Below are positions 15,932 through 47,093 of a stretch of DNA of 64,000 nucleotides, piece by piece. The translations under genes and the position numbers were made by a program. The first letter of the stretch is position 1, and each line of letters begins with the position of its first letter. The notes beneath the pieces were generated by a model. That model did no database searches. It was given only the letters and a program-made list of their open reading frames with translations, and was not told where the DNA came from. Origin of the DNA: a virus (lineage: Duplodnaviria > Caudoviricetes); the IMG/VR virus record IMGVR_UViG_3300028048_001497, positions 32,001-96,000 of that record; one strand, 5' to 3'.

Positions 15932-15957
15932 ATATTTCTTAAATAGGTGATAGAGTA

Positions 15958-20336: not shown

Positions 20337-20476
20337 GTATTTCTTTTGTAGATGTTCATAAAGGTCGTGAAATAATGAATGAAGATATTTACATTATGGA
20401 TATAGATGAATTAAAGGAATTGTTAGGCGATAATTTTAATAATTGTTTAAATGATATTAATAAAGAATCTAATTAA
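20318..20476 (+). CDS. small hypothetical protein (52 aa)
   Basis: MKTYLFCISFVDVHKGREIMNEDIY...; GAGGT upstream, but the start lies inside a terminator hairpin. Confidence 0.35.
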   Translation: MKTYLFCISFVDVHKGREIMNEDIYIMDIDELKELLGDNFNNCLNDINKESN

Positions 20477-22846: not shown

Positions 22847-22860
22847 AGGGGATAAATAAT

Positions 22861-23439
22861 ATGCTAAAAAAGGTTGCAGAAGAATTGAAACAGATTGATA
22901 CAGTAGAGCAATTAAAAAAAGTTTTATCTGATAATGATTGGACTACGGATGAATTAATGGATTATATTGATGACACATGGAAAGCTGATAGTGCGCTTAA
23001 AGATTGGTTTATGACTTTTAAAGGTTTGGACGATTTTTGTGATGAAGCGACAGTTAAAGGTTATATCAATTTTTTGCTCTCTGATAGTGAAAATTATGGA
23101 TATGTAAAAGATGCCATCGAACAGGTTGGATTACCACAAGTTCTTACAACAGGTGATGATATTAATGTATCTGATGAAGTGGCTAAATATTTGATTGGTT
23201 GTATTGATAATGGTAAGTGTTATGATTATCTATCAGATGATATAGATTTTTATGTAGAAAAAACATCAAAAATTATGGATGATATGTATCAGTATGTTAG
23301 TGAATATGATGCGCAAATAGATGATGGTTCTACAAAATATACAAATGAAGAATGGGATAATAAAGTAAATGAAGATTATCAAGATACAATTTGTTCAAGT
23401 GATACAATGATGGGAGTCGCAAAAGAATTGTTTGGTTAA
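22861..23439 (+). CDS. acidic hypothetical protein
   Basis: D/E-rich ORF starting MLKKVA; own RBS and a downstream terminator. Confidence 0.7.
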   Translation: MLKKVAEELKQIDTVEQLKKVLSDNDWTTDELMDYIDDTWKADSALKDWFMTFKGLDDFCDEATVKGYINFLLSDSENYGYVKDAIEQVGLPQVLTTGDDINVSDEVAKYLIGCIDNGKCYDYLSDDIDFYVEKTSKIMDDMYQYVSEYDAQIDDGSTKYTNEEWDNKVNEDYQDTICSSDTMMGVAKELFG

Positions 23440-23446
23440 TATAGAG

Positions 23447-23478
23447 AAAAAGAGAAGTTGAAAGTGCTTCTCTTTTTT
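23447..23478 (+). terminator. intrinsic terminator
   Basis: aaaagagaag...cttctctttt plus T run. Confidence 0.65.
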
Positions 23479-23518
23479 GATATAATATGAATATATAGCA
23501 TTTTGAAAGGATAAAAAT

Positions 23519-24610
23519 ATGCGTAATTATTTAAAAACAGATATATCTACAATTTTTATTATGTTGGGACATGAATGTAATATGAATTGTAAATATTGTT
23601 TGCAACATGATGTTGTAAACGTGGCTTTAGGAAAAGAAATTAATCCTGATATATATAATTTTATTAATGATATTGCAAGAAATCAAAATACAGATTTAGG
23701 ATTACAATTTTATGGTGGCGAACCATTAGTGTTTTTTGAAAAGATAAAAAAATTTATTGATGGTTTAAAATCACGTAATATGTCTAACAACGTATACTTT
23801 ACTATGATTACAAATGGAAAATTGTTAAATGAAGAAAAAGTAAAGTATTTAAATGACAATTTTTCTCATGTAACAATTAGTTGGGATGGAAGAAATTCTA
23901 AAATTACACGTGGGTATGATGTTATTAAAGAAAATAAAGAAAATGTTTTCAAATTAAAGAATTTTTCTTTTTCAGGTGTATTATCTTCTTATAATTATAT
24001 AAAGGATTATTTGGAAGATTGTGAAGAAGTAAATCGAGATTATGTAGAGAATTATCATGGTCATACATTGTATTTTAATGTTGATGAACTATTAGATGTT
24101 AATCTGCAAAATCAGGATTTGAAAAATTTCGATTATAGCAAAGTACAAGAACAAATGGTATCATTATGTGAAGAATATCGGTTATATTTTCAAGAGAATG
24201 AACAAATATCTGTAATAAGAAAAAAGTTTATTGAAGAAAAAATTGGATATTTAAGAAATGCTATCAAAACAAAATCATTTGCACCAACTAGAGATAGATG
24301 TGGTAATGGCTGCGAAGTATTAAATATGGATTTACAAGGGAATTTATATAAATGTCATAATACAGATACAAAAGTTGGATGTATTATAGATAATTATTTT
24401 GATATATTAAAAAATGTATTTGCTTTGGATATGGCAGAAAAAAATTCTAGTAAATGTGATGATTGTATTGTACAAATTATGTGTAGAAATGGTTGTCCTT
24501 TGGTTAAAGATAAAGCTAGAGAAGAATACTATTGCAAAATGGCTATGAGTATGAACTATCCGATAATGCAGTTAATTAAAATCTTGGGTGGTGTTGTAGT
24601 AAATGAGTGA
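23519..24610 (+). CDS. radical SAM/SPASM enzyme (cassette 1, B; close paralogue of A)
   Basis: CNMNCKYC, YGGEP; shares SWDGRNS.ITRGYDV with A; CGNG..YKCH..CDDCIVQIMCRNGCP..YC. Confidence 0.92.
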   Translation: MRNYLKTDISTIFIMLGHECNMNCKYCLQHDVVNVALGKEINPDIYNFINDIARNQNTDLGLQFYGGEPLVFFEKIKKFIDGLKSRNMSNNVYFTMITNGKLLNEEKVKYLNDNFSHVTISWDGRNSKITRGYDVIKENKENVFKLKNFSFSGVLSSYNYIKDYLEDCEEVNRDYVENYHGHTLYFNVDELLDVNLQNQDLKNFDYSKVQEQMVSLCEEYRLYFQENEQISVIRKKFIEEKIGYLRNAIKTKSFAPTRDRCGNGCEVLNMDLQGNLYKCHNTDTKVGCIIDNYFDILKNVFALDMAEKNSSKCDDCIVQIMCRNGCPLVKDKAREEYYCKMAMSMNYPIMQLIKILGGVVVNE

Positions 24611-25496
24611 AAAAGATGTAAAGTTTAGATGTGAAATAACAAATAAACCAAATGGCATTATTACTCCAACAAAATTTAGAGATATAAGAACAGAAAAACC
24701 TGAAAATAAAACTATGAAACGCCAAGATTTGCTAGATATAGCAAATGCTTTGGCTAAATTAGAGAATTACAAAACCCATGTTAGTAATTGTAATTGTACT
24801 CCAATTATTGATTGTCAAACGATTAGATGTCAACAGTTGTTTAAAGGTGCATATGACGAAGAAAGATTAAGTCATGACTTATTAAGTTATGCTCGTTGGA
24901 ATGGTGATAATTCTTTTCCTTATCCGAGAGGCCCAGTACAAAAATATTTGCCAAATGGTAAAAAAAATCCAGAACATAGGTTGAATACAGAAAATGGTAA
25001 ATATAATGATTTTGAATATAAAGTAAACATAGAATTGTGTAGGAAAAATGGTGCAAATTGGGTATACCCAGAAAATCCGTTTACAAAAGAAGTAACGTAT
25101 GGTGTAACGGCTTATGTAAAACAATATATTAAAGATAGAGATTATAAATATGATACGACACCAAAACCGTGGAAACCGTGTCAAAAGATAAAGTCAATTA
25201 GTGATATTTTAAGTTGTGAGAAAATATCTTGTGAATTAACAACATGTCAATTGGTTTTATGTCAAAACAGTAATGCTTGTCAAACATGTCAATCGGTTAA
25301 AGCATGTCAAATATGTCAAACATGTGAAGCACAATGCGTATGTCAATCTTGTCAGTTATGTCAAGAACAAGATATGTATAATAACTGTTGCCAAAAAATA
25401 TCTTGTCAATCACAATGCACTTGTCAGTCTTGTCAATCTTGTGAAAATATTTCTTGTCAAGCATATGTAGATGATGGTAAAGACCTTACGAATTAA
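24603..25496 (+). CDS. Cys/Gln-rich repeat protein, candidate radical SAM substrate
   Basis: Overlaps the rSAM stop; NCNC patch; C-terminal block with 22 Cys, mostly followed by Q/E. Confidence 0.75.
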   Translation: MSEKDVKFRCEITNKPNGIITPTKFRDIRTEKPENKTMKRQDLLDIANALAKLENYKTHVSNCNCTPIIDCQTIRCQQLFKGAYDEERLSHDLLSYARWNGDNSFPYPRGPVQKYLPNGKKNPEHRLNTENGKYNDFEYKVNIELCRKNGANWVYPENPFTKEVTYGVTAYVKQYIKDRDYKYDTTPKPWKPCQKIKSISDILSCEKISCELTTCQLVLCQNSNACQTCQSVKACQICQTCEAQCVCQSCQLCQEQDMYNNCCQKISCQSQCTCQSCQSCENISCQAYVDDGKDLTN

Positions 25497-32857: not shown

Positions 32858-35590
32858 ATGGTAAATCGTGATATAGTATTCTCTTTTGATGAAAATAAAT
32901 ATGAACACCTTATGGAAGATATAAAAGATGTTTGGGTCGCTAGGGAATATATATATAATTTTACATTTAATTTTACTGTTAATAATTTAGAAGCACCGAT
33001 TAATAATATTATTATTTATAAAAATGGTGAGGTTTATAAAGATTATAAAATTAATCAGCGTTCTAGCATTAAATATGAGATTAAAGATGATAACTGGTTG
33101 GGTTTTGGTAATTACAATTATGCAGTAGAATTAATTCTTGAAGGTGGAAGAACTTTTAAGAATGATTTTTATTTTAAAATTGTTTATTCAAATGTACTAG
33201 ATGATATAAAGGTAAGAAGTTTTTCAACATATGGTTTACATGAAAATTATTCTTATTTAGATATTATCCTAAATCTTCAAACAGAATATCAAATAGATAA
33301 AATCTTGCTTTATACGCATATATTACCATTAACTGAAATAGATGAACATAGCAGAATATCGAAAGAATCATTAACTAATAACCATTATGATAGTGTGGAT
33401 ATTAAATGGAGTTATTTAGGAACGATGGAAATAAAAGATTATCAATATTTTTATCGTCAGTTACTTTTTGATACCACACTAAAAGAAGTTAGAACTGTGT
33501 TATATAAAGCAGTAATTATAACCACAAATGGAATAACAAAACCTGTTATTATGTCCACTTTGATTCAACCAAATTCATTGTCGTTAAATCAAATATCATA
33601 TATAAATGCAGATACAGATGAACAATATGGCATATATGGCGGTATTGTTGGAAAAATTGATAACAATTTAGATAATAATGCAGATGTAAATTTGGTTAAT
33701 CCTGAATATAATGGTAAAATATTTGAAATGGTAATAGATAAACGAGATAAATATAAGAATTTTATTGAAATAAAAGTAGACAATTATCTATTCCATGCAG
33801 AAAAATTTTCTACAGAATATTTAAGAAAAAAGTTTAGAAAACACGCAACCAATAAAAATCCAAACTCTTTTGTATTTAAAGGAAAAGGAATTATTACTAA
33901 AGTAATTGATGAATATAGGAATATTGTTCACAAAGATACATGTACATTCGTTATTTCGTTGTATTGTGGTGATGATATATTTACTTCTTTTACAATTCAA
34001 CCACAACATGATAATACATTGGCTTTAAGCACAAGAAAAACAGGAAATAGTATCGTTAAGTATAGTAAAGATAAAACAAATATTACATTTGATTCAACGT
34101 ATATAGATAAAACAGTTGATGCAGATGCTTTAACAGGGTATTTTACTTTGAATAAAAAGAAAAATGAGTTGACATTTAATTATCCAACATCAGACTATAC
34201 TTCAGAAACAATACCGTCTATATCAAAAATGCCTGTTCCAATTGGCACGCTTAACGAAAAATATTTTCAATACGATTATGTAACATATAATGATACGTAT
34301 TTCTTCTTTGTTGATTTTGATGAATTTGGAATACATTTAGTTCAATATGATGGAATTAATTATGATAAGTTCGATTATGACGTTCGTTTAACAGAGGAAA
34401 CGCTACAATATGTACGTACACATGATATTGGTTGCTTTGACAAAAAAGATAATCTAACATTAAAATTTTTAAATTTTGATGGGAAAAGCATATTGCAGAA
34501 AGTTATGGTAGAGAATTATGAACTATCTGTTATTAATTGTAATGATATGGTAACAAACATTTATGGTTCTTTAAGAACAAAACTTGTTGCATATATACAA
34601 GATATACCAGATATAATTGTTGATGGAGTTACATATGAATTAAAATACAATACAAAGTCTGCTTATAAAACGATTAGCTATGGCTTTGTTGATATGGGTT
34701 ATACAGATTTTAATTTGAAATTTTCTGCGCAAATGTTTTCATATAAAATAAAAATTCCAATTATTGCTAAATTTAATAATTCAAGTACAAATGTTAATGT
34801 TAGATTTAATGCAGATATGGAAGTTACTTGTAGGGAAGATTGTTTAATATATGATGATAATTTTTCTGAAGGAAATCCGAGATATGATATAGATATAGAC
34901 AATGTAAATGTTACATATCATGCGAAGGATAATGGATTGAATTTAATTCCGCAGACAGGTTATGAAAGTCTGAATGATAGATTTTTTGTTAAAGTTTCAA
35001 AACCGTATAAAACAAAGTCAATAGATGACTATGCAATTTTTAGAAATTGTAATTTATATTATGGGAGTATAAATTTATATGCTCCAAAACCACAAGATTT
35101 TTATGGTAATACAGATAAAAGAACATCATTTACATATAAAGATTTGTGTAGAGCGAGAGTATATGAAATTAACGAAAATATTTATATTATATTGAATCGT
35201 GTGAACGGTAAATTAATTAGAACGACTGTAAATGTGCTATTGAAAAAACAAATAGGACAAGAAATTATAGATACAGATGTATATTATAATGATTTGTATA
35301 CTTATTCTCAAAAGCAGTTACAATCATTTGATATGTTACTAAGTAAAGCATATTTGTACGATACAGTTGAAAGAGACATGTATATATTTTCAATAAGCGA
35401 TTTTGATAAGTTGTATTGCGGTGGCTATGATAATGTATATCATCAAATGCAATCCATTACAAGTCTTAGTGGAATTGTTAATGATGATAGAAAAGGATAT
35501 GCATTTAAATATTCATATCAATATCCGTTAAATATTAAAAATAGAAATCTGTATTTAAATGATATGGTGATTAACGAAAAAGGTGAATAA
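32858..35590 (+). CDS. large Y/N/D-rich beta-type protein, possible virion protein
   Basis: 910 aa ORF; composition typical of beta-rich structural proteins; no catalytic motif seen. Confidence 0.55.
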   Translation: MVNRDIVFSFDENKYEHLMEDIKDVWVAREYIYNFTFNFTVNNLEAPINNIIIYKNGEVYKDYKINQRSSIKYEIKDDNWLGFGNYNYAVELILEGGRTFKNDFYFKIVYSNVLDDIKVRSFSTYGLHENYSYLDIILNLQTEYQIDKILLYTHILPLTEIDEHSRISKESLTNNHYDSVDIKWSYLGTMEIKDYQYFYRQLLFDTTLKEVRTVLYKAVIITTNGITKPVIMSTLIQPNSLSLNQISYINADTDEQYGIYGGIVGKIDNNLDNNADVNLVNPEYNGKIFEMVIDKRDKYKNFIEIKVDNYLFHAEKFSTEYLRKKFRKHATNKNPNSFVFKGKGIITKVIDEYRNIVHKDTCTFVISLYCGDDIFTSFTIQPQHDNTLALSTRKTGNSIVKYSKDKTNITFDSTYIDKTVDADALTGYFTLNKKKNELTFNYPTSDYTSETIPSISKMPVPIGTLNEKYFQYDYVTYNDTYFFFVDFDEFGIHLVQYDGINYDKFDYDVRLTEETLQYVRTHDIGCFDKKDNLTLKFLNFDGKSILQKVMVENYELSVINCNDMVTNIYGSLRTKLVAYIQDIPDIIVDGVTYELKYNTKSAYKTISYGFVDMGYTDFNLKFSAQMFSYKIKIPIIAKFNNSSTNVNVRFNADMEVTCREDCLIYDDNFSEGNPRYDIDIDNVNVTYHAKDNGLNLIPQTGYESLNDRFFVKVSKPYKTKSIDDYAIFRNCNLYYGSINLYAPKPQDFYGNTDKRTSFTYKDLCRARVYEINENIYIILNRVNGKLIRTTVNVLLKKQIGQEIIDTDVYYNDLYTYSQKQLQSFDMLLSKAYLYDTVERDMYIFSISDFDKLYCGGYDNVYHQMQSITSLSGIVNDDRKGYAFKYSYQYPLNIKNRNLYLNDMVINEKGE

Positions 35591-35594
35591 AAAT

Positions 35595-35627
35595 AAAAAG
35601 TAGTATAATATAAATATACTACTTTTT
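35595..35627 (+). terminator. terminator hairpin containing a TATAAT box
   Basis: aaaaagtagtata...tatactacttttt. Confidence 0.6.
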
Positions 35628-35643
35628 ATGGAGCGAAAATATA

Positions 35644-36696
35644 ATGAAACATGTTTTACAAATTCATATGACAAATCAATGTAATTTGAAATGTCCATAT
35701 TGTTATATTCATCAGAATGATAAAAAAATAAGTTTGGATGGATTAAAAAAACAAATTGAGCATATACAAGAATTATCTTTGAGAATTGATGAATTTTTTG
35801 ATGGTGAATATGATGTAACATATTTTGGAGGAGAACCGTTAATTGAATATAACAATATTTTGTTGTTTGATAAATATTTAAAAGAAAATTTAAATATTGT
35901 ACATAGTTTTATTCAAACAAATGGCATTTTATTAAATCAAAATATAAAAAATGAATTAGGCAAAAGAAATATTCATGTTGGGATTAGTTGTGATGGTTGT
36001 GATGATAAGAATCATAAATACATAGAACAATTATATAAAAATAAAATTGTTGAAATGAATCCAAAAATGATGGTAAGTAATTATAATGTATCTGATTTGA
36101 TGAAGAATATTGTCTATTTTTATAAATTGGCTATGAATAATCAAATAGATAATTTTTATATAGATGTATCGTTTGTTAAAGATAACATTTGGGATGAAAA
36201 ATCATTAGGTATATTAAAACAACAATTGAATAGTTTGTATGATTTTATTGTTATGAATTATGACAGTTATCATAGATGGATTTATATAGGATTTGTAGAG
36301 AAGATATTGCAAAATATAAAGAATGGAAAAAGAAATTATGTTTGTTTTGCTGGCAGTAGTGGTTTTAGTTTAACTCCTGAAGGTATTATTTATCCTTGTT
36401 CTAGGTTTTATACAAATCATGAATATCCATTGTTTGATAGTAATAAAAATTTATTTTTTGAAGATAATATACAATTTATAAAATCTATGAATACAACAGT
36501 TGATGATAAATGTAATAAATGTGTTTTGAATCAATTTTGTAATCATGGATGTTTATATTCCCAAATTAAAAATGATGGAATTGTAGATGGATATTGCGAA
36601 GTATTAAAAATGTGTTTTCATATGGTAACAGATTTATATAAATATATGAAAAATAAATACAATATAAATATATTAGAAAGGGTGAATGGTAATTGA
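35644..36696 (+). CDS. radical SAM/SPASM enzyme (cassette 2, A)
   Basis: CNLKCPYC, FGGEP, QTNG; CFAG..YPC..CNKCVLNQFCNHGC..YC. Confidence 0.92.
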   Translation: MKHVLQIHMTNQCNLKCPYCYIHQNDKKISLDGLKKQIEHIQELSLRIDEFFDGEYDVTYFGGEPLIEYNNILLFDKYLKENLNIVHSFIQTNGILLNQNIKNELGKRNIHVGISCDGCDDKNHKYIEQLYKNKIVEMNPKMMVSNYNVSDLMKNIVYFYKLAMNNQIDNFYIDVSFVKDNIWDEKSLGILKQQLNSLYDFIVMNYDSYHRWIYIGFVEKILQNIKNGKRNYVCFAGSSGFSLTPEGIIYPCSRFYTNHEYPLFDSNKNLFFEDNIQFIKSMNTTVDDKCNKCVLNQFCNHGCLYSQIKNDGIVDGYCEVLKMCFHMVTDLYKYMKNKYNINILERVNGN

Positions 36697-37757
36697 GAAC
36701 ACCAATGGCGGTTTCTATTAATATGGGAAGTGCTTGTAATTTTCGTTGCAAATATTGTTTTGAAGTAAAAAATGGTGCAGTAGAAAAGAATGAAAGTATT
36801 CCTGAAAAAGTATTTAATCGAATTTTAGATGTTTTACATGAATTGGCAGATATAAATGATTTGCGAATTGAATTTTGGGGTGGAGAACCAACAGTATATT
36901 TTAAAGATATAAAACGAATTATATCAGAATTTTATGATAATGAAAATGTAAATTTCTTTATGTATACAAATGGTTCATTGGTACAATCGTTCAAAGATGA
37001 TTTGCTTGGAATAAAAAGTCATGTTAATGATAGGCTTCAAATACAAGTATCATATGACTATCAAAATATAGAAAACAATCAACGTTTGCAATTAAATCAT
37101 AGCATTGAAGAAACAGATAAAATGGTTCGAGAAGCAATTAAATGGTTGGATAAAAATAATTTTCATTTTGGTACAAAGTCAACATGTACAATGAAAGATT
37201 TGGAAGAACATTTATTTGAACAATATTTGAACTATGAGGATTTAAATAGGGAATTGAAACATAAAATTCCATTTGCTTTAACTCCTGATACATTAAATGT
37301 TGGTGATATTGATTATGATAAAATGAATTGTCAATTTGTAAAACTAATTCGCTATTTTTTAAAGAATAAAGAGTATGGACAAACAGGTTTTTTGTGGTTT
37401 GACCAGCCAAATAGTAATGCGGATTGTTCTGGTGGACATAATTCATTTCAAATAGATACAAATGGTGATGTATCATATTGTCATGGATGTTTGTATGGGA
37501 AAAAAGATTTAGTATATACAAATATTTTTGAAGATAATTTTTTGCATAAAGTAGATTGTAACTATTTAGTTGCAAATAATATGTTTAAAAAGAATGAACA
37601 ATGTTCAAAATGTGAATCGTTGTTTTGCTTTAGATGTAATGCAATAAATAGCAAAGGCAAAAAGGAAAATTGGAACAAGTCAAATAATCCTAAAGTTTGT
37701 AAGTTGTATAATAAAATCTCTGATTACATTAGAGCTTATTTTAAGCTAACTCATTGA
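36693..37757 (+). CDS. radical SAM/SPASM-like enzyme (cassette 2, B)
   Basis: CNFRCKYC, WGGEP, YTNG; CSGG..YCHGC..CSKCESLFCFRCNA..VC. Confidence 0.9.
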   Translation: MRTPMAVSINMGSACNFRCKYCFEVKNGAVEKNESIPEKVFNRILDVLHELADINDLRIEFWGGEPTVYFKDIKRIISEFYDNENVNFFMYTNGSLVQSFKDDLLGIKSHVNDRLQIQVSYDYQNIENNQRLQLNHSIEETDKMVREAIKWLDKNNFHFGTKSTCTMKDLEEHLFEQYLNYEDLNRELKHKIPFALTPDTLNVGDIDYDKMNCQFVKLIRYFLKNKEYGQTGFLWFDQPNSNADCSGGHNSFQIDTNGDVSYCHGCLYGKKDLVYTNIFEDNFLHKVDCNYLVANNMFKKNEQCSKCESLFCFRCNAINSKGKKENWNKSNNPKVCKLYNKISDYIRAYFKLTH

Positions 37758-37829
37758 TATTTATTATATAGTAGTATGAAAATTTTTAAATTTTTAATAT
37801 AAAAATAATTATTAATGGAGTTGATATAG

Positions 37830-39242
37830 ATGTCTGAAGTACAAACTATGGATAAATACGTAGAAGGATTTTATCAGATTATTAAAGATTCGGACGTAGT
37901 TGGTGGAACATCCAGATTTCCAATTTGTAAACCATATCAAAGTGAAGATGGAGCTATTGGTGATAAAAACCATGTTTTTTCTACAAGTGTATGGAATGAT
38001 TTTGGCGATTCTGAAAAGAATTGGTTATCTGCAAATAACTATCAAAATCGCTCTACGAAATTACGTGAAGATTTTACAGATAATCCAATAACAAATAATG
38101 AATGGAACGCATTACTTGTTAAAATACGTGAAGAATTTATGATACGTAATAATTTCTTGTCAAATTATGGTAGTTTAAAACCACGTATTAATAACATGTA
38201 TATACAGAATGGTCATCAGGGGTATTTTGCAACAGGTGATACAATTAGGCAAGATGATATATCACGTATCTTTGATGATATATTAACATTGTTGAGTATT
38301 GAAGTTCCTTCTGTTGCGCGGTCAGGAAGTTCGGTTAATAACCGTTTACCATTAAATACTTTATCTTCGGATGTTGCAAAAACAATAGATGTAGCACAAT
38401 CAAATGGGTCATATACAAAAGTAAAAGTTGAACCACACAACGTAGATTTTGCACAACTAGCTTATAATTTAAATGCTTATGATATAAACGAAGGTTCTCA
38501 TAAAGGAAATAACTGGTTTACTGGTTCACATATGCGTGAATATGTATATCGTCATTCAGGTATTAGAACGGAAGAAACAAGTTCTGTCGATGGTACAGTA
38601 AATAATGGTATTGTTCCTACACATGAACCAACAGATTTGACAACAAGTACAACATACGGTTATGCTGAAGAACCCCCTAGAAATAATAGTACTAGTTCTC
38701 AATTAATTACACATCGTAGACCATTTGGTAATATTGATTATGTAAAATTGGTAAAAGATGGTTCTTTGAAAAAGCCAATTATTGATGGCGATGGATATGT
38801 TGTTTCTGATGAATATATGGAAATGGTGCATACTCGTTGGGCATTTTTGGGTTCAGTTGCCAATGCAGGAAAAATTAGTCCAATGTATGTAAAACATATT
38901 ATAGGGACAAGAGAAATAGTTGTTAAAGATAAAGACGGAAATGTTATGAAAGATACATATGGCAATCCAATTAAACAAATAGAAACAAAAGATTTTTCTG
39001 CTGATACTAACATAACAGTTCCAGACTTCTGTAAGAATCCATTATCAATTACGCATGGAGAATATACATTAAATATAGCTGCATCTAATGTTGCTACATA
39101 TTTTATGAAAGTTATGAATTTAATTTCATCTAAATGTGTATGTAATTGCAACTTTTGTTCTTGCTTTGGTCATGAAGCTGCGTGTGCTTGCTATGTTGTA
39201 AAAGTAACAGGTTGGTGCTATACATATCAGTATATTCTTTAA
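37830..39242 (+). CDS. fibre-like protein with Cys-rich C-terminus, candidate radical SAM substrate
   Basis: S/T/N/G-rich body; ends KCVCNCNFCSCFGHEAACACYVVKVTGWCY (8 Cys). Confidence 0.7.
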   Translation: MSEVQTMDKYVEGFYQIIKDSDVVGGTSRFPICKPYQSEDGAIGDKNHVFSTSVWNDFGDSEKNWLSANNYQNRSTKLREDFTDNPITNNEWNALLVKIREEFMIRNNFLSNYGSLKPRINNMYIQNGHQGYFATGDTIRQDDISRIFDDILTLLSIEVPSVARSGSSVNNRLPLNTLSSDVAKTIDVAQSNGSYTKVKVEPHNVDFAQLAYNLNAYDINEGSHKGNNWFTGSHMREYVYRHSGIRTEETSSVDGTVNNGIVPTHEPTDLTTSTTYGYAEEPPRNNSTSSQLITHRRPFGNIDYVKLVKDGSLKKPIIDGDGYVVSDEYMEMVHTRWAFLGSVANAGKISPMYVKHIIGTREIVVKDKDGNVMKDTYGNPIKQIETKDFSADTNITVPDFCKNPLSITHGEYTLNIAASNVATYFMKVMNLISSKCVCNCNFCSCFGHEAACACYVVKVTGWCYTYQYIL

Positions 39243-39260
39243 TGGAAAGGAATTTTAACT

Positions 39261-39530
39261 TTGTTAAAAGAACAAACAAAAGAAGAAAGACAAAAAATGA
39301 TGGAATTTATGCTAACAGAACATAAATTCCTAGAATTAAACAGACAAATGATTTATCCTATAGATAAAGTTGCATATCAAGCAATTAATAATATTTTATC
39401 TATGTCAATGATTAGTATGGGAAGAAAATACGGACTTGACTATGATGAAAATGTTCAACTAAAAGAAGAAAAACAAGATAAAAATATAGATAGTATTATT
39501 GATGAAATAAATAAGGGGACAGAAGAATAA
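39261..39530 (+). CDS. hypothetical protein
   Basis: TTG start after GAAAGGA; coupled to the next gene. Confidence 0.6.
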   Translation: MLKEQTKEERQKMMEFMLTEHKFLELNRQMIYPIDKVAYQAINNILSMSMISMGRKYGLDYDENVQLKEEKQDKNIDSIIDEINKGTEE

Positions 39531-40165
39531 TGGCAACAATGAATTTTTATAGCAAACTTCTTGAACAGAGTGATAAGAAATTTTTAATTGAGCCTTTTGA
39601 AAAATTAGATGTAGAGCCAATTTTGCTAGACACAAAAGATTATGTTTGGCTTACTCCTGATGCATATACTTATGTAAAAACAAAATTGGATATTGAGCAT
39701 CGTGAACCACAGATGAAAATTTATATTACAGGAGAAGTTGACCCGAATAAAGCATATGATGTTTCGGATTTACAAGAGGTAGAACGTGTTCAAGAAGAAA
39801 CTGATGAAGATGTACTAGATGCTTATAAAGAAAAAACATTACGTTTGATTAATGAACAAATTAGTAATCAATTAATGATTTCAAATTTTGAATTATATCA
39901 TTTCTTTAAATTAAATCATTATTTGGAATCAAAAGGTTTCTTTATTACAGATGAAAATCGTGAAGAAAAATATTTGGAAGTAATTAATAGCGGTGATACA
40001 GAAGCATTAGAAAAACTTTCAGAATATCTTGATTCACTTGATGATTTTAATGCTATAGATGCAACTTATATGAAATATAAGGAATATAAGAACAAAATTA
40101 AGGCAGCAAAAACTAAAGAGGAAATTAGTGATGCATATTATGAATTGTCAGGGAAACTGTTTTAA
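39530..40165 (+). CDS. hypothetical protein, possible fibre-assembly chaperone
   Basis: C-terminal KNKIKAAKTKEEI resembles the end of DUF4376-type proteins found beside tail fibres (from memory). Confidence 0.45.
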   Translation: MATMNFYSKLLEQSDKKFLIEPFEKLDVEPILLDTKDYVWLTPDAYTYVKTKLDIEHREPQMKIYITGEVDPNKAYDVSDLQEVERVQEETDEDVLDAYKEKTLRLINEQISNQLMISNFELYHFFKLNHYLESKGFFITDENREEKYLEVINSGDTEALEKLSEYLDSLDDFNAIDATYMKYKEYKNKIKAAKTKEEISDAYYELSGKLF

Positions 40166-40967
40166 TATAGTTTATATGACAAATCAATCATATTTATTCC
40201 AAACATATGTTTCTATGAAATCACTAAAATATAATAAACATCGTGACATTTGTTACGATGTTTATTTATTATGTATTGAATTTAGAGATATAGGAAAAAT
40301 AAAAGAATTAGATAGTGATGATTTTCATATAAAACCAATTTTTATAGATAAAAACATATTTAAGACTGAAAATAATGCCGGTGTTGTTTATTATAAACTG
40401 TTGTTACATGAACTGTTGGATTGCGATTTTGTTTTTCATATAGATTCTGATACAATCGTAATAAAAGATATATCAGATGTTTTCAAAATAAATATAAATG
40501 ATTATTTTTGTGGTGCAGTTCGTGACAAGATAAATGGATTTTCTTATTTTAATGCAGGGAATGTATTATTCAATTTAAAGAAAATACGAGAAAAGATAAT
40601 AGATAAAGATAAGACAATGTATGTTTATTATGAAGAGTTGAATAATGAGTTGAAAGATAATAAAGGCTTTTTATGGGAACAAGATATTATGAATAAAGCG
40701 TTTAAAAATTATATTAAATATATTGATTATGGGTATAATTTTTTGGCTAATACATATAGCAAATATAAATTTAATGAGTTGGTTCGTTTATATGGAGAAC
40801 CAATTAAATCAGACAATATTAAAATAATTCATTTTGCTAGTAACCCTAAACCTTGGAAAAAAAGTTCATTGTTTGGTGAAATTTGGAAAATGTATGCAGA
40901 AAATAGAATAGATAAAGAATATGAAAATAAAATTTTAAGGATGGCTTGTCGTGAATACAAAAAATGA
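40128..40967 (+). CDS. glycosyltransferase family 8
   Basis: IDSDTIV, YFNAGNVLFNL, EQDIMN, IIHFASNPKPW. Confidence 0.9.
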   Translation: MMHIMNCQGNCFNIVYMTNQSYLFQTYVSMKSLKYNKHRDICYDVYLLCIEFRDIGKIKELDSDDFHIKPIFIDKNIFKTENNAGVVYYKLLLHELLDCDFVFHIDSDTIVIKDISDVFKININDYFCGAVRDKINGFSYFNAGNVLFNLKKIREKIIDKDKTMYVYYEELNNELKDNKGFLWEQDIMNKAFKNYIKYIDYGYNFLANTYSKYKFNELVRLYGEPIKSDNIKIIHFASNPKPWKKSSLFGEIWKMYAENRIDKEYENKILRMACREYKK

Positions 40968-42093
40968 TATGTTTATGATGCAATTTTTGTTAGGTAATAA
41001 ATTTGATAAATTAAAACCAAATAATGATACAATTATTGTGACAAATAGCATGGGTCGTAGAGAAGCACATAGTTATTTGTGGGGAGCAGAAAGATATACA
41101 TTAAAAATTTGTACAGAGTTATCAAAAAAATATAAAGTTCATTTGTTTATAGCTGGTGGAAAATTTTTAGATATTCATAATGTTACAATCCATCCAAATA
41201 TAGTTGCTTATTTATCTCGTGGAACAATTAATGATTATGCAATTAAAATTAGAAATTTAAATCCTAAGTGCATTTTTTGTAATGCTAGTTGTGGACAGGA
41301 TGCGTTATTTTGGACAATTATATCTAAAGTTTCAAAAGTACCTATAATTATGTTTTTTCATAATGAGCCTGAATTTATGAAAGATACAATTTCGCATATA
41401 TTAGCTATGGATTATATTAAAAATCAGGATATAATGAAATCAGGAGAAAGATTATATGATGTTGTATTAAAATATTGTGATAGATTAGCGTTTTTATTAC
41501 CACAATATATAGATGAAAGATATAAAAACAAATCATATGTTTTTTATAATTGTATAGATATTCCTAAAAATGTAGATATTATTAAAAAAAGAAAAAATGT
41601 TTTATATGTTGGAAGAATAAATTCAGATACAAAACGAACACAAATTTTATTGGATTGGATAAAAAATACAAAATATGATTGTGATGTTGTTGGATATAGT
41701 TATCATGGATATGGATATATAAACATGGATGAATATAAATTTAGTAATATTCATTATTTTGGTTATCAAGAAGATGTATCTAGGTTTTATAAAAATGCGA
41801 ATGTATTGGTAATTCCATCAAGATATGAAGGATTGCCAACAGTTATGATAGAAGCATTATCATATGGTGTGCCAATTATAGGATTTAAAGAATGTAAGGT
41901 TATGAATTATCTTATTAAAGATGGATATAATGGATGGTTAGTGGATGATAATTTTTCTGATGTTATGAATTATGTATTATCTATAAATGATATGATTAAT
42001 ATTCGACAAAATTGTTTGCAAGAAGCTAAAAAATATGATATTCATAATATTATGAAAAAAATAAATGAATGTATTGAGAGTGTTGCAGAATGA
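40951..42093 (+). CDS. glycosyltransferase family 4 (GT-B)
   Basis: WGAERY, LYVGRI, PSRYEGLPTVMIEALSYGVP. Confidence 0.9.
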   Translation: MNTKNDMFMMQFLLGNKFDKLKPNNDTIIVTNSMGRREAHSYLWGAERYTLKICTELSKKYKVHLFIAGGKFLDIHNVTIHPNIVAYLSRGTINDYAIKIRNLNPKCIFCNASCGQDALFWTIISKVSKVPIIMFFHNEPEFMKDTISHILAMDYIKNQDIMKSGERLYDVVLKYCDRLAFLLPQYIDERYKNKSYVFYNCIDIPKNVDIIKKRKNVLYVGRINSDTKRTQILLDWIKNTKYDCDVVGYSYHGYGYINMDEYKFSNIHYFGYQEDVSRFYKNANVLVIPSRYEGLPTVMIEALSYGVPIIGFKECKVMNYLIKDGYNGWLVDDNFSDVMNYVLSINDMINIRQNCLQEAKKYDIHNIMKKINECIESVAE

Positions 42094-43001
42094 AAATTAA
42101 TTTGATTTATTTATTTTACGAATTAAATGGAGCATATACATCATTTGAAGATACATTTTATAATTTAAGACGATTTACAAATCATGATATTCGATTTATT
42201 ATTTTATATGAAGATAAAAATTTATTAAGAAGATTTCATGAATATTTAGCTTTTGGTGATGGAATTTGTTATCTTCCATTAGCAGTTGGAAAATACATGG
42301 ATACATATGGAAATACAAATATTATTAAACATAAAAAAATGGTTTATGATATAAAAGGTGATATAAACATTATTAGTTCTGAAATTATTAAATTACAGAA
42401 ACAAAATCGTTTTAAACAATCTGCTAATCAAGAATTTCTTTTATATCCTGCATTTATTTACAAGCAACAAAATAAAAACCAACAAATTTTAAAAGATGAA
42501 ATGGATTATATAAAAGAACATCATGTATTAACAATTTGTAATAAATTTAATTCAAAGTTTGTTGATAATAGTTTTGTTTGGTATATGAAGTTTTCTCCTG
42601 AAAGAATTAATAAACTGAAAAATTTAGTTTCAAATAAAAAAGATGCTCTAGTTGCAGAGGAATATTATCACAGTAAAATAAAAGAAGAAAATATTAAGCC
42701 ATTTGATTATAAAGAATATTTATATTATCGTTATGATAAGAAAAATAATGATAATTTGTATACAGATGATGGTGCTCGGTATTATGAAAACATTGGTAAG
42801 TTACTATTTGAATTTATTTTATTAGGAAAAAATTCAATTTATTTACCAAAAAATAAAAAGTTTGATGATGGATTAACAGAATTTATGAATGATATGGGAT
42901 TAGATGACAATAAAGAGTATAAATTTTCTGATAAAGATAAACAATTTTTTGAGGATAAATTGTTTATGAAGTCGGATGATAAACTTTTAACTATTTTTTA
43001 A
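42090..43001 (+). CDS. hypothetical protein, paralogue of 15958..16794
   Basis: Shared ENIGK..FEF..LGK and DDGLT motifs; sits inside the GT operon. Confidence 0.6.
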   Translation: MKINLIYLFYELNGAYTSFEDTFYNLRRFTNHDIRFIILYEDKNLLRRFHEYLAFGDGICYLPLAVGKYMDTYGNTNIIKHKKMVYDIKGDINIISSEIIKLQKQNRFKQSANQEFLLYPAFIYKQQNKNQQILKDEMDYIKEHHVLTICNKFNSKFVDNSFVWYMKFSPERINKLKNLVSNKKDALVAEEYYHSKIKEENIKPFDYKEYLYYRYDKKNNDNLYTDDGARYYENIGKLLFEFILLGKNSIYLPKNKKFDDGLTEFMNDMGLDDNKEYKFSDKDKQFFEDKLFMKSDDKLLTIF

Positions 43002-43016
43002 GGAAGAAGTTTTTGT

Positions 43017-44606
43017 ATGAAAATATTAGGAATACAATGTTATCAAGATTATAATGTTACATATTATAATACAGATACAAAAGAAATGAAGTTTTTGGAA
43101 TTAGAAAAATTATTAAAAAAGAAACATTTTTCTTTCCATTCAGATAAAATTGATTATATGTCTGAAATAGATAATATTTATCGTGATAATCTTAGAAATA
43201 ATTTATATAAATGTCAAAAATTAATTCATAAAGAATTTAATGTTGATAAATTTGACGTGATTTGTTGGAATTATAAAACATTTAAAGACGGTTATTTAAA
43301 ACAGGAATCATATGATTTTGTAAAAATGTTAGAGCGTTGTGACATTTTAAAATTTCATCATCAAGAAAATCATGTGTTACCAGCAATAATTGAAAATCAT
43401 TTATCTGATGCGCTTTGTTTATCTATAGATGGTAAGGGTGATGGAAATCATGCTTTTTATCATTGGAAAGATAATAAATTGAATAAATTGTTTCAAGAAC
43501 AAAAATTCTCATATGGTATGTATTATGAAGTGTTGTCCTGCTATTTTTTAGATAAACGTCATAAATATGAACAAGGATTAGAAGGTAAATTTATGGCATA
43601 TGCAGGTTTATCTAATAATTTTGTTCAAATTAAAGATATAGATGTTTTTGAAAAAACAATTAAAGACGTGAATTGGAATATATGGGAAGATAAAGAAAAT
43701 ATAGAAACATATATTTATAATTTCTTAGATGAACAATCTAAAGAATTTGATAAGTATGATTTGGCATATACCATGCAAAAATTGTGGATAGATTGGGTAA
43801 TGAGAGAACTATCTTCTTATAGACATGAAAGTGATATATTAGTCCTTTCTGGTGGTTGTGCTATGAATTGTATGTTAAATTATGTGATTGAAAAAACAGG
43901 TTGGTTTAATCATATATACTATACCCCTGTTGTAGCAGACACAGGTCAATCATATGGTGCAGTTTTAAATTATTTGTTGCATTATAAACCAGATGAATTA
44001 AATTATATTAAGTCTAAAAACTATACTGTTACTCAATCAATGCAAGAAAAAGATTTGTATCAACAACATAGTTCTGAATTTAACGATATAGATATAAACG
44101 CTTTGGTTGAAAAATTGGCTAATGATAAAATTGTTGGTGTTTGTCGTGGGAATATTGAAATGGGTGCAAGAGCCTTGGGTAGACGTAGCATTTTATCTTC
44201 TCCATTTCACAAAGAAATGCATGATAAATTAAATACAATAAAGGGTAGAGAATGGTATCGTCCATATGGAATTATAATTCCTGAAGATAAAATAAGTGAA
44301 TATTTCGATATAGATACTGATGTCCCATACATGAATATTTTAGCAAAACCAAAAATAGATAATTTATTAGGTGCTATGCATAAAGATGGAACAATTCGTA
44401 TACAAACAGTTAGTGAAAAAGATGATAAATGGTTATATAATTTGTTATATGCGTTTGGTAATAAAACAGGAGTTGCAATTTTAATTAATACTTCATTTAA
44501 TGATAGTGGTTTGCCAATTTTTAATTATTTTAGTGATATGTATCGTATGTATCAAGAAAAATTGGATGGATTAATTATTGAAAATAAAGTTTCGTATAAA
44601 GAGTGA
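43017..44606 (+). CDS. O-carbamoyltransferase (CmcH/NodU/TobZ family)
   Basis: HHQENH, DGKGD, LSGGCAMN, DTGQSYG, EMGARALGRRS, KGREWYRP, HKDGTIRIQ, NTSFN. Confidence 0.92.
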   Translation: MKILGIQCYQDYNVTYYNTDTKEMKFLELEKLLKKKHFSFHSDKIDYMSEIDNIYRDNLRNNLYKCQKLIHKEFNVDKFDVICWNYKTFKDGYLKQESYDFVKMLERCDILKFHHQENHVLPAIIENHLSDALCLSIDGKGDGNHAFYHWKDNKLNKLFQEQKFSYGMYYEVLSCYFLDKRHKYEQGLEGKFMAYAGLSNNFVQIKDIDVFEKTIKDVNWNIWEDKENIETYIYNFLDEQSKEFDKYDLAYTMQKLWIDWVMRELSSYRHESDILVLSGGCAMNCMLNYVIEKTGWFNHIYYTPVVADTGQSYGAVLNYLLHYKPDELNYIKSKNYTVTQSMQEKDLYQQHSSEFNDIDINALVEKLANDKIVGVCRGNIEMGARALGRRSILSSPFHKEMHDKLNTIKGREWYRPYGIIIPEDKISEYFDIDTDVPYMNILAKPKIDNLLGAMHKDGTIRIQTVSEKDDKWLYNLLYAFGNKTGVAILINTSFNDSGLPIFNYFSDMYRMYQEKLDGLIIENKVSYKE

Positions 44607-45367
44607 TAGAATTGAAACATATTCCTTTGATAGAATATCATTTAGTAAATCATTGTAATTTAAATTGTAAGGGGTGTGCTCATTTTGCACCATTGGCAAA
44701 ACATTGGTTTGCAGATATATATGAATTTGAGAAAGATTTAAAACAACTATCTTCATTGGTTGAAATTGATAGACTAACTTTGTTTGGTGGAGAACCATTG
44801 TTAAATGATAATATAAATGATTTTTTAATTATAGCAAGAAAGGTTCTTCCAAATACAGATATTAGTGTTTTGACAAACGGTGTTGTTTTATTAAAAAAAA
44901 TAAGTTCTATGGCAAAAGTTCTAAAAGATAATAATATTTATATTGATATTACTTGTTATCCAATTAATGTTGACTATGAAATAGAATTAAAAATGTTAAA
45001 AGCATTAAAGATACCATATAGAATTTATAATGATTTAGAACGTGTAAAAACATTAAGGCATCATATTTTATCTCATATAAAAAAAGAAAATACATGGGAT
45101 TGTTTAATGATAAATTCAAATTCGGTTCAATTAAGAAATGGTAAATTGTATATATGTCCTTTGCAAGCGTATATTGATATTTTTAATGATTATTTTCACG
45201 AAAATTTTAAAGTAGATAAAAATAATATTTTGGATATTTATAATTGTACGGACGATGATATAGTAAATATGTATCATAGAAAAAATAGTTTTTGTGAATA
45301 TTGTAGAGAACCAATAGAAGGGAATAAATATTCTACATCTAAAAGGGAGAAGTTAGAATGGATGTAA
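44603..45367 (+). CDS. radical SAM enzyme (short, glycan-locus type)
   Basis: CNLNCKGCAHFAP, FGGEP, LTNG; short C-terminal Cys motif (C..YICP..FCEYC). Confidence 0.88.
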   Translation: MIELKHIPLIEYHLVNHCNLNCKGCAHFAPLAKHWFADIYEFEKDLKQLSSLVEIDRLTLFGGEPLLNDNINDFLIIARKVLPNTDISVLTNGVVLLKKISSMAKVLKDNNIYIDITCYPINVDYEIELKMLKALKIPYRIYNDLERVKTLRHHILSHIKKENTWDCLMINSNSVQLRNGKLYICPLQAYIDIFNDYFHENFKVDKNNILDIYNCTDDDIVNMYHRKNSFCEYCREPIEGNKYSTSKREKLEWM

Positions 45368-46170
45368 AATATTGTTTAAAAACACAAATTGTGGATGAAT
45401 GTAATTTAAATTGTAAAGGGTGTGACCATTTTGCTCCATTAGCAAAACCTTGGCATCAACCATTAGTAGATTTTGTTAATATGATGAAAACGGTTCGTAA
45501 TACAATTGGAAATAATATCAAGGAAATTGAATTATACGGTGGAGAACCTTTATTACATGAACAATTATATGAAATGATTTTAGTTTTGAAAGTTCTTTTC
45601 AACAATGAAATTATAATTTCAATTGAAACAAATGGCATTTTATTAAATAATTTTTTACAAAGTCATAAAAATTTAATTAATGATAATAAAATAGAAATTA
45701 AAATTACGGAATATAAAAGCACAAAAGGAATTGTAAATAGATTAAAGAATAATTATTTACATAATAATATATATCAAGCAAAAATGTTAAATAAAGAACT
45801 TGAATTAACAAATCATTTTTCATATAAAGAAAACTTGTTTAATGTTAACATTAACAAAAAACAAAATGAACAAATTATTGATGTATATAATAATTGTTAT
45901 GTAAAATGTGAGGAAAAAGATTCTTTGTGTTTAAGAGATTGGATTTTATCTCCATGTCCAATGACAATGTGCTTGAATATTTTTGATGATTTTTTTAATG
46001 AACAATATGATAATAAGAATAATCATGTTGTTGTTACTGATAAATTATCTGTTAAAGATTTAGATAAAATGGCACATTATCCATGTGATTTTTGTAAGCG
46101 ATGTGGAAATATTATTTATGGTATTCCATATGGCATTTCTAAAAAGGATAGAAAAGAATGGCAGATGTAA
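45358..46170 (+). CDS. radical SAM enzyme, paralogue of previous
   Basis: CNLNCKGCDHFAP, YGGEP, ETNG, PCP..FCKRC. Confidence 0.88.
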   Translation: MDVKYCLKTQIVDECNLNCKGCDHFAPLAKPWHQPLVDFVNMMKTVRNTIGNNIKEIELYGGEPLLHEQLYEMILVLKVLFNNEIIISIETNGILLNNFLQSHKNLINDNKIEIKITEYKSTKGIVNRLKNNYLHNNIYQAKMLNKELELTNHFSYKENLFNVNINKKQNEQIIDVYNNCYVKCEEKDSLCLRDWILSPCPMTMCLNIFDDFFNEQYDNKNNHVVVTDKLSVKDLDKMAHYPCDFCKRCGNIIYGIPYGISKKDRKEWQM

Positions 46171-47093
46171 AATTTTATATTATTATTCCAACATATAATC
46201 GTTTTGATAAAATAAAAAAAGCGATACAAAGTGTATTGCAACAGATATATGATAAGTATCATATAATTATAGTTGATGACCATTCAGATAAAAATAATCA
46301 TATACAATTAGAAAAATATACTAATTGTAATGATAGAATATCATATTATTATTTGCCTGAAAATAGAGGTCATTGTTATGCTAGAAATTTTGCGTTAAAT
46401 CATATTGAAGAAATTGATAGTTGGGTAAAATATTTAGATGATGATGATTTAATATTACCAAATTGCTTAAAAGATATTGCAGATTATATATCAAAAAACA
46501 AACAAATAAATGTTTTAACAACAAATTTTGATATATTAAACGAACATGATGAAGTGATTAAGCATATTGAACCTAATTATAATATTGATAGTGTTTTTAA
46601 TGGAAATTTAGACACTTGTTGCATTTGTCATAAATATTCATTGTTTAAAGAAATTGGTGGATGGGATGAATTTTTATATCGTATGGCAGATGATGATTTT
46701 TTCTTTAAATATATTACTAATGGTAAATATGGGTTTTTAGATAAAACAACCTCCGTATTTTATCGGACAAGTGATAAAGGTAGAGTATCGAACCAGACAA
46801 CGAATTTAAAATATGTTAATTATATTGCAGACAAATATAATTATCATTATAATAAAAAATGTTTGATTATATGTGATAATAAATATATTGACAATGTGTT
46901 AAATACTGAATTTAAGATTGAATCATTTATGAAGTTTGATATAAATAAAAAGCCATCAAAAGATTATGATTATTTGATTTATATTAAAGATTTTAACGTT
47001 CTTCAAGATTTGTATGATGAACTATATCGTACTAAGAAAGATTTGGTTAAAATAAAAAATTCTATATTGATAAAAAATAGATTAAAGAATTGA
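46158..47093 (+). CDS. glycosyltransferase family 2
   Basis: IIPTYNR, VDDHS, ARN, YLDDDD, IGGWDE. Confidence 0.9.
   Translation: MADVKFYIIIPTYNRFDKIKKAIQSVLQQIYDKYHIIIVDDHSDKNNHIQLEKYTNCNDRISYYYLPENRGHCYARNFALNHIEEIDSWVKYLDDDDLILPNCLKDIADYISKNKQINVLTTNFDILNEHDEVIKHIEPNYNIDSVFNGNLDTCCICHKYSLFKEIGGWDEFLYRMADDDFFFKYITNGKYGFLDKTTSVFYRTSDKGRVSNQTTNLKYVNYIADKYNYHYNKKCLIICDNKYIDNVLNTEFKIESFMKFDINKKPSKDYDYLIYIKDFNVLQDLYDELYRTKKDLVKIKNSILIKNRLKN

Follow-up and report, generated by a model that had tools for sequence, protein, structure and literature searches.

A phage cassette pairing two radical SAM/SPASM enzymes with a cysteine-tailed protein: a candidate maturation system for fibre tips

Why a phage would carry two radical SAM/SPASM genes directly in front of a gene for a protein ending in a dense run of cysteines is the question raised by a locus in IMG/VR virus record IMGVR_UViG_3300028048_001497 (Duplodnaviria; Caudoviricetes). 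The stretch analysed, here called the window, comprises 64,000 nucleotides, bases 32001-96000 of the 174.5-kb record. At 35644-40165, five genes follow one another on the plus strand, encoding two enzymes (c2A and c2B), a 470-aa (amino acids) Cys-tailed protein, an 89-aa protein and a 211-aa protein (Table 1). The original prediction, made from the sequence alone, had described this set as two radical SAM/SPASM genes, the Cys-tailed protein and two coupled small genes, which is what we find, including the overlapping ATG/TAA of the small pair. The evidence suggests that the five genes form one module, probably a dedicated maturation system for a fibre-tip protein in which, by analogy to known enzymes, thioether cross-linking would be the likeliest chemistry; taken as a whole, this explanation appears reasonably probable to us.

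Both enzymes score above the gathering cut-off of Radical_SAM (PF04055; 29.5 bits), with 50.1 bits for c2A (E 4.5e-13) and 43.0 bits for c2B (E 7e-11), and both match phrog_1802. The CX3CX2C motif lies at residues 13-20 of c2A and 15-22 of c2B. With regard to the predicted assignment of both to the SPASM proteins, c2A passes the SPASM model TIGR04085 (38.7 bits, cut-off 27) with the canonical spacing CX2CX5CX3C, and c2B, a SPASM-like enzyme, carries seven conserved C-terminal cysteines in the spacing CX17C...CX2CX4CX2C...C, TIGR04085 not being among its best 25 NCBIfam matches. The two proteins are clearly divergent, sharing only 28% identity over 120 residues. In a tree of 88 radical SAM open reading frames (ORFs) from the scan loci described below and the cassettes, c2A fell into clade A (n=22, SH-aLRT 100) and c2B into clade B (n=23, support 98). 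CX3CX2C is conserved in all members of both clades and, together with the seven SPASM cysteines, these ten residues are kept at 90% or more within each clade; therefore, clade A and B enzymes are both probably active, with three [4Fe-4S] clusters each. Homologues of c2B numbered 33 in a 5.8-billion-protein library. For both enzymes the best NCBIfam model was that of the ranthipeptide maturase PapB, and the nearest solved structure was the thioether synthase CteB (5WGG/5WHY), aligned from chain residue 98-99 to about 420 and thus over the catalytic core and SPASM domain, not the N-terminal RiPP recognition element (RRE; RiPP, ribosomally synthesised and post-translationally modified peptide). 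Likewise, alignments to the QhpD and SCIFF profiles start at profile positions 97-99, leaving the RRE part without a counterpart, and no fused recognition domain was found in c2A or c2B.

The presumed substrate is distinguished by its C-terminus. As predicted, eight cysteines (residues 436, 438, 440, 443, 445, 452, 454 and 463) are packed into its last 35 residues, and two lie elsewhere; the Ser/Thr/Asn/Gly richness that had also been claimed turned out to be moderate (31% compared to 23% in 22 other window proteins). Relatives are few, with only about 11 in large protein libraries. In 10 homologues of 30-60% overall identity the pattern C-V-C-N-C-N-[YF]-C-S-C-[FY]-G-[HDN]-E...C.C.VVKV.GWCY.Y.Y is near-invariant and constitutes the best-conserved part of the family, which argues that the tail is not a product of chance. 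An N-terminal block, FYQIIK..FPIC[KR]PYG, is likewise conserved across the family alignments, and the middle of the protein is replaceable, as a 256-aa short form (P0012) keeps both ends. The protein matched no family in Pfam, PHROG or NCBIfam and gave no tblastn match in phage records, and a language-model atlas returned only unnamed viral clusters at 0.85 or below. An AlphaFold2 model built on an 11-sequence alignment (predicted local distance difference test score, pLDDT, 56.7) has a moderately confident helical-bundle core with beta insertions and leaves the Cys tail unmodelled (pLDDT about 25). No fold above background came out of searches with this model in PDB (Foldseek), BFVD, VIA-align (wide) and the ESM Atlas; the top match was a designed helical filament at Z 5.9.

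The tail can nevertheless be placed in a wider family of viral proteins. Across 226 heptads from 29 proteins the consensus is C-T(73%)-C-N/D/Q(51/37/8%)-C-N(90%)-Y(87%), position 7 always being aromatic (otherwise H, F or W), and the window tail CVCNCNF fits the shorter form C-T-C-[N/D]-C-N-Y. This grammar matched no precursor model in NCBIfam or Pfam. Ahead of the repeats, the relatives have a helix ending ...IN.LI..IN.AG..C, for which the window protein has NVATYFMKVMNLISSKC, and further upstream a helix ending ...R(R)G or RNNF, for which it has KIREEFMIRNNF. We define a heptad family, the core of phrog_26958, by helix 1, a helix 2 ending ...[IL]N..(AG/SS).C and one or more C-x-C-[NDQ]-C-[ND]-aromatic heptads, encoded near clade A/B enzymes and the 211-aa protein, referred to as the helper. 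The window protein has KIREEFMIRNNF, NVATYFMKVMNLISSK and CVCNCNF, and all three partner genes are present; with only one complete heptad, it counts as a divergent member, and it misses the phrog_26958 threshold.

The original prediction had assigned the enzyme pair to its Cys-tailed protein, and searches from either side recovered the other, the tail motif alone leading to both enzyme clades and the 211-aa gene in many unrelated viral contigs. IMG/VR DNA was scanned with a pattern for C-x-C-N-C-N-Y-C alone, without reference to the enzymes, yielding at least 109 stretches. Among the matches listed, 36 were in-frame real proteins (120-534 aa, 9-90 Cys) and 73 were short spurious frames; one of the latter (L094; L numbers denote loci) proved to be a genuine heptad frame that is truncated and accompanied by a helper match, leaving 72 as controls. 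Within the same short loci, and again among the matches listed, a clade-A enzyme accompanied 22/36 real heptad proteins, a clade-B enzyme 19/36 and a homologue of the 211-aa protein 22/36, compared to 0/72 control loci with any of the three. Most loci of the remaining real heptad proteins end at contig or locus limits. In L009, c2A-like and c2B-like enzymes are followed by two small proteins that consist nearly entirely of C-T-C-N-C-N-Y heptads in tandem, the grammar also seen in the window tail; a third radical SAM gene and the 211-aa orthologue come next. L010 follows the same logic with a different Cys tail. Conversely, when the gene contexts of c2B homologues at 28-39% identity were inspected, Cys-rich helix-helix-tail proteins stood directly downstream in L009, L010, L246, L248 and an NCBI 274-kb contig. 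The order is clade-A enzyme, clade-B enzyme and a 269-aa heptad protein in L248, clade-B enzyme, Cys-tailed protein and helper in L246, and, in the NCBI contig, first three enzymes and then genes of 227, 95 and 215 aa. The most distant context, L247, was the sole one lacking a clear pattern. When 185,579 prokaryotic genomes (one per species) were scanned for this motif, 120 stretches were obtained with one true case, a Chloroflexota metagenome-assembled contig carrying a clade-B enzyme (L177), the others being out-of-frame or chance matches; the module is therefore essentially viral.

Closer relatives (L001, L002/3, L006 and L008/L081) keep the order of a 910-aa protein, two enzymes, the Cys-tail protein, a protein of about 88 aa and one of about 211 aa. 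As these represent one phage lineage, gene order alone is little proof. In L004, a c2B orthologue (58% identity) is split from a short-form substrate by two inserted DNA methylase genes, and despite this insertion the orthologues of c2B, the substrate, the 89-aa and the 211-aa protein are all retained. The inserted genes (L004:1186-3407) are two paralogous N6/N4 DNA methyltransferases, the second with a short run of unknown bases.

The enzyme complement of the loci varies. A third, shorter radical SAM clade (13 rows in the tree, support 99) is common in the same loci and in many lies between the clade-A enzyme and the fibre genes (L009:9876-10730, L016:3682-, L057:3440-, L034:3090-). Its proteins of about 280-340 aa carry CX3CX2C and a C-terminal CX3CX2CX2C; with this clade included, three enzymes would face three cysteines per heptad. 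The window cassette lacks the third clade, to which the two small radical SAM genes at 44603-46170 of the window are not orthologous. A further sub-type (L010:2742-5066, L246:4516-6737, L113:7257-8778) has a clade-B enzyme only and the tail C[IV]C.S..C...CGC.G.CP, sometimes ending in a Tyr run (YYYYYYP, YYYY), the helper still following in L010 and L246. The grammar of the tail seems to vary with the set of enzymes present.

Relatives of the substrate carry domains that link the heptads to tail fibres. In many heptad proteins the last heptad leads directly into Y-S-D-E-R-L-K...GVIAQEL, and 6/10 tested proteins matched Peptidase_S74 (PF13884, chaperone of endosialidase) at 24-34 bits (cut-off 22). 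The match begins exactly at the Ser of SDxRLK, right behind the last heptad, with the cleavage motif Ser-x4-Lys; also the heptad gene of L248 has a precomputed S74 domain, and tail-fibre PHROGs match the S74 region. Because S74 starts directly after the last heptad, we read many heptad proteins as tail fibres. In S74 fibres such as the K1F endosialidase and the T5 L-shaped fibre, the domain cuts itself off at this Ser; by analogy, the heptad run would be left as the mature C-terminal tip. The similarity lies in S74 with SDxRLK behind the last heptad of the substrate relatives, whereas the window protein has no S74 and ends simply with its Cys tail. To our knowledge, classical S74 fibres have not been reported with Cys heptads or with linked radical SAM enzymes, and an incomplete literature search turned up no paper describing either. 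In some loci (L057:4721-7282, L077:7389-9443 and others), three or four paralogous heptad fibre genes stand in tandem; most of them stop about 12 residues past the S74 cleavage Ser (SDE[RQ][LV]K..[IV]EY[IM]); one L077 paralogue keeps the full S74 domain, so that in such arrays the chaperone may possibly be supplied in trans.

The module parts also occur in cultured phages. A 534-aa heptad protein was found by protein search in 15 records of annotated Campylobacter phages, including CP220, CPt10, CP21 and IBB_35, and all those checked belong to Firehammervirus. It corresponds to phrog_26958, annotated as 'unknown function' or 'hypothetical', and comprises helix 1 (KIREFIKAMNVEVQTRNNF), helix 2 and seven CTC[D/N]CNY heptads. 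Helix 1 (KIREF...RNNF) and helix 2 are those of the window protein, from which it differs by a 200-residue C-terminal extension. A clade-B enzyme lies 2.4 kb downstream of the 534-aa gene, CP220 gp023 is a full-length c2A homologue (E 1e-28), and CP220 gp015 carries the helper core motif and is homologous to the 211-aa protein. Firehammervirus phages thus hold all four module parts, scattered rather than in one cassette as in the window. Two published observations fit this picture. Campylobacter phages of this type were reported in 2010 to have 11-12 radical SAM genes of unexplained purpose (PMC2853527), and mass spectrometry of IBB_35 virions listed gene 3-9 (60,318 Da), the heptad protein, among the particle proteins with 2.6% coverage (PMC3322345 supplement), which offers modest independent support for a virion location. 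Neither report ties the heptad protein to radical SAM enzymes. In CP21 (HE815464.1 74991-76592) and vB_CjeM_WX1 (OP654737.1 20183-21742) the 534-aa protein is annotated 'putative N-acetylneuraminate pyruvate lyase'; this name looks like a mis-annotation, because no lyase family matched the protein.

The recurrence of the 211-aa family beside heptad proteins marks it as a core member of the module; in nearly every locus it comes after the fibre genes. The family comprises 82 clusters, all unnamed. Its AlphaFold2 model (pLDDT 85.9) shows an N-terminal beta domain and a helical bundle, for which fold searches gave only generic three-helix bundles (Z 9.5 or below), and the family had no Pfam match to RRE, PqqD or DUF4376 (PF14301) at E up to 1, seven members having been searched for DUF4376. 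It had been proposed that one of the small proteins ends like tail-fibre chaperones. This is one of the weaker parts of the prediction, based on a 28-residue PHROG match (E 3.7e-4) and a language-model neighbour at 0.91. A role as tail-fibre assembly chaperone, supported by the neighbour and by the position downstream of fibre genes, is only a lead. A T4 gp51-like hub assembly factor was suggested by the position of CP220 gp015 beside a 'baseplate hub' gene and was dropped, as IBB_35 annotates a different gene, 2-49, as gp51.

From these data a mechanism can be proposed. The enzymes c2A and c2B would be non-redundant. Their target would be the Cys tail at the C-terminus of the 470-aa protein, which they would meet in the cytoplasm of the infected cell, where low oxygen would be required for them to work. 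By analogy to CteB, PapB, QhpD and CrpC, the likeliest product would be a thioether joining the sulfur of a Cys to a carbon atom of a residue nearby. The obvious candidate acceptors are Asn or Asp at a distance of two or three positions, C-x-x-N/D occurring twice per heptad (C1 to N/D4, C3 to N6). Clades A and B would introduce different links into the Cys run, most likely thioethers in both cases. As neither enzyme has a fused RRE, the 211-aa protein, perhaps together with the 89-aa protein, would hold or present the substrate; it may replace the RRE or serve as assembly chaperone, and the two conserved helices of the substrate may provide the scaffold that is recognised. The substrate would then be a divergent member of a phage family whose proteins are typically tail fibres ending in (C-T-C-[N/D]-C-N-Y)n, and in this phage would most probably give rise to a fibre or tip protein that is associated with the virion and whose end is covalently stapled.

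The same components can be put together differently. The enzymes may modify the tail by a chemistry other than thioether formation, i.e., a cyclophane-type C-C link, oxidation of Cys to formylglycine or epimerisation, perhaps with a different reaction for each enzyme. We regard this as unlikely but not far-fetched: the invariably aromatic heptad position 7 belongs to the residue class on which cyclophane-forming SPASM enzymes act, two distinct enzyme clades and often a third are kept next to each other, and the NCBIfam matches include YhhB, GrrM/OscB, FxsB and AmcB (cyclophane) as well as the anaerobic sulfatase maturase. The cyclophane-enzyme matches, however, span the N-terminal radical SAM core only, whereas the full-length best matches are thioether synthases, and the three invariant cysteines of each heptad are most simply understood as reactants. 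A different view would give the cysteines a structural role in a trimeric fibre, either in binding metal or in forming disulfides, a parallel being the His-x-His iron sites at the tip of the T4 long fibre; they would then require no enzyme, and the radical SAM enzymes would act on sugars or another protein. Placed at i, i+2 and i+4, the cysteines would all point to the same side of a strand, the failure of AlphaFold on the tail would be expected with a missing cofactor, and the window cassette adjoins glycosyltransferases, a carbamoyltransferase and more radical SAM genes. Yet enzyme clades and helper accompany heptad proteins in many contigs without adjacent sugar genes, the enzymes lie in the peptide-maturase branch of SPASM proteins, and the module is retained despite genes inserted into it, which makes this view distinctly improbable. 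It is more improbable still, to the point of being hardly credible, that the 470-aa protein is a giant RiPP-type precursor whose tail of about 35 residues is released as a bioactive peptide acting on competitors or the host instead of residing in the particle. A layout of leader and C-terminal core and an upstream motif of the substrate gene's own would suit such a precursor, but the conserved module holds no protease or exporter gene, the relatives are tail fibres with S74 behind, not before, the repeats, the Campylobacter homologue was found in virions, and the non-tail part of the protein is conserved and partly well folded.

Several observations weigh against maturation of a fibre tip by thioether cross-linking, the reading favoured here. 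That the heptad family is modified at all is something we infer from sequence, and its alternating cysteines could instead bind metal or form disulfides. The enzymes score far under the cut-offs of every named maturase family (PapB, NF047865: c2A 113.5 and c2B 68.3 bits, equivalog cut-off 340; SCIFF maturase, TIGR03974: 65.9 bits, cut-off 425; QhpD, TIGR03906: 65.4 bits, cut-off 453; CrpC, TIGR04463: c2B 35.6 bits, cut-off 525), and the chemistry is therefore not transferable by homology. In the helper, neither an RRE nor a chaperone fold could be recognised. The neighbourhood is crowded with glycosyltransferases and additional radical SAM genes, so that some enzymes there have other targets, and the virion detection in IBB_35 rests on only 2.6% sequence coverage. 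With regard to the predicted fibre tip, relatives with S74 after the heptads and the Campylobacter homologue in virions agree with it, whereas the window protein itself does not display fibre character: S74 had no Pfam match in the protein or in the rest of the 174.5 kb, no tail-fibre family matched the protein in Pfam or PHROG, and its low-confidence model is non-fibrous.

Parts of the proposed system have precedents. CteB/SCIFF and PapB/freyrasin likewise combine a radical SAM core and a seven-Cys SPASM domain with substrates that are Cys-rich in their C-terminal regions; in contrast, the enzymes studied here lack the N-terminal RRE, score far below those families, occur as two paired clades and would act on proteins of 120-534 aa instead of short peptides. 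A full-size protein substrate is shared with the SPASM enzyme CrpC of Methanococcus voltae, which installs ranthionine links on the Cys-rich CrpA, a protein with C-x-x-Q/D repeats (2026, PMC13692751); these C-terminal repeats resemble C-x-x-N/D of the heptads, and the same work cites QhpD/QhpC as an earlier example of whole-protein cross-linking. CrpC, however, belongs to TIGR04463 and has an RRE, and both systems are cellular (archaeal or bacterial) with one enzyme, whereas the window-type system is viral and would use two or three enzymes and a dedicated helper on fibre proteins. No paper linking radical SAM, SPASM or thioether enzymes to a phage fibre or virion protein was found in a literature search that was incomplete.

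The enzyme class and the idea of whole-protein cross-linking are already known. What appears novel is that the substrate is a viral fibre, that it follows the heptad grammar, that the enzymes come as two paired clades and that a dedicated helper is encoded with them. Cross-linking by radical SAM/SPASM enzymes has so far been described in small peptides and in two or three proteins of cells, but not in virus particles. Tentatively, and with slightly more doubt than confidence, we propose that heptad fibre tips stapled by two or three dedicated radical SAM/SPASM enzymes and a helper represent the first maturation of a virion protein by radical enzymes and a new fibre architecture, that the system is widespread in phages of low-oxygen habitats, and that it explains the surplus radical SAM genes of Campylobacter phages, all of this taken jointly. 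If true, this would reveal a further level at which phages construct and harden their receptor-binding organelles, provide a new substrate grammar for RiPP-type enzymes, and offer a reason why Campylobacter group II phages have so many radical SAM genes. As cultured Firehammervirus phages carry every module part, the idea is directly testable.

Table 1. Features of the cassette and its upstream border, in window coordinates.
Feature	Position	Strand	Basis or remark
AT-rich hairpin, GTAGTATA / TATACTAC, 7-nt loop, then TTTTT	35600..35627	+	read from sequence, after the 910-aa gene
c2A, radical SAM/SPASM enzyme, clade A, 350 aa	35644..36696	+	Pfam, PHROG and NCBIfam matches
c2B, radical SAM/SPASM-like enzyme, clade B, 354 aa	36693..37757	+	start overlaps c2A stop
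TATTT-N6-TAG, candidate phage promoter element	37758..37771	+	72 nt upstream of the substrate gene
470-aa Cys-tailed protein, presumed substrate	37830..39242	+	homologues and alignments; without family match
C-terminal tail, residues 436-470, presumed modification site: heptad CVCNCNF, then CSCFGHEAACACYVVKVTGWCYTYQYIL	39135..39239	+	near-invariant block
89-aa helical protein	39261..39530	+	TTG start, GGAAAGGAA upstream; kept in close relatives, L004 and L052
211-aa helper, core motif G[FY].I.D.N.EE.Y..II..GD	39530..40165	+	ATG overlaps preceding TAA; translationally coupled to the 89-aa gene

As to the genome in which the cassette resides, CheckV estimated a completeness of 35% for the 174.5-kb record, and the source is therefore a very large phage. 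The tail sheath of the window (55668-57833) shares 43% identity over 87% of its length with gp178 of the 497-kb Bacillus phage G, all other matches being at or below 30% identity, and by this similarity the window phage is classed as a G-like giant myovirus. Phage G gave no match to the 470-aa protein, nor did blastn with the whole cassette yield any match among 50,697 phage records.

Directly upstream of the cassette lies the 910-aa gene (32858-35590), which is without family match and which, in the relatives, encodes 898-960 aa and always holds the same position; the Cys-tailed protein may be attached to its product. It is preceded by a 97-aa gene that carries TATTT-N6-TAG. The hairpin behind the 910-aa gene is likely a terminator parting the cassette from the upstream gene, and it is absent from the consensus scan list because its stem holds just two G-C pairs. 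Downstream, at 40128-47093, follow genes for two glycosyltransferases (GT8, GT4), an unknown protein, a Nol-like carbamoyltransferase, two small radical SAM proteins (254 and 270 aa, 31% mutual identity) and a further glycosyltransferase (GT2). The relatives that share the cassette order continue in the same way with GT8, GT4, carbamoyltransferase, two small radical SAM genes and GT2. By its gene content the block reads as a sugar-modification set, with DNA, a virion protein or the host surface as candidate targets. With regard to the Asn-rich heptads, protein glycosylation by these neighbouring sugar genes is worth considering.

TATTT-N6-TAG, predicted to precede the substrate gene, is indeed located there and is kept in front of the orthologous gene in L001, L006 and L081. 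The window contains 21 copies compared to 8.0 +/- 2.9 expected, and the sites near ORFs lie at 15933, 20338, 29262, 31619, 32515, 37758, 48251, 50355, 51502, 54913 and 59257. About 10 copies are located 14-82 nt before ORF starts (about 195-290 nt at 20338 and 59257), and several lie directly downstream of hairpins, so that the motif plausibly represents a phage-specific promoter class. The claim that it marks structural genes did not hold, as an HD-domain gene and several unknowns carry it as well and the genes concerned are functionally mixed. Sigma-70-like promoter matches in the cassette were no commoner than in shuffled sequences.

The original prediction had also pointed to a first cassette of the same architecture, and two radical SAM genes followed by a Cys-tailed protein are present at 21737-25496. 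Its enzymes, starting at 21737 and 23519, share 43% mutual identity and fall outside clades A and B in the tree, in line with the predicted divergence between the two enzyme pairs. A protein search of IMG/VR with a cassette 1 enzyme returned a single close relative (L124), and the co-variation of the CQ/CE grammar of this cassette with its enzymes rests on one lineage. The 297-aa substrate of cassette 1 starts with a helix, RQDLLDIANALAKLENY, followed by NCNC and then CQ/CE repeats, suggesting that the cassette 1 and 470-aa substrate families may share an ancestral scaffold.

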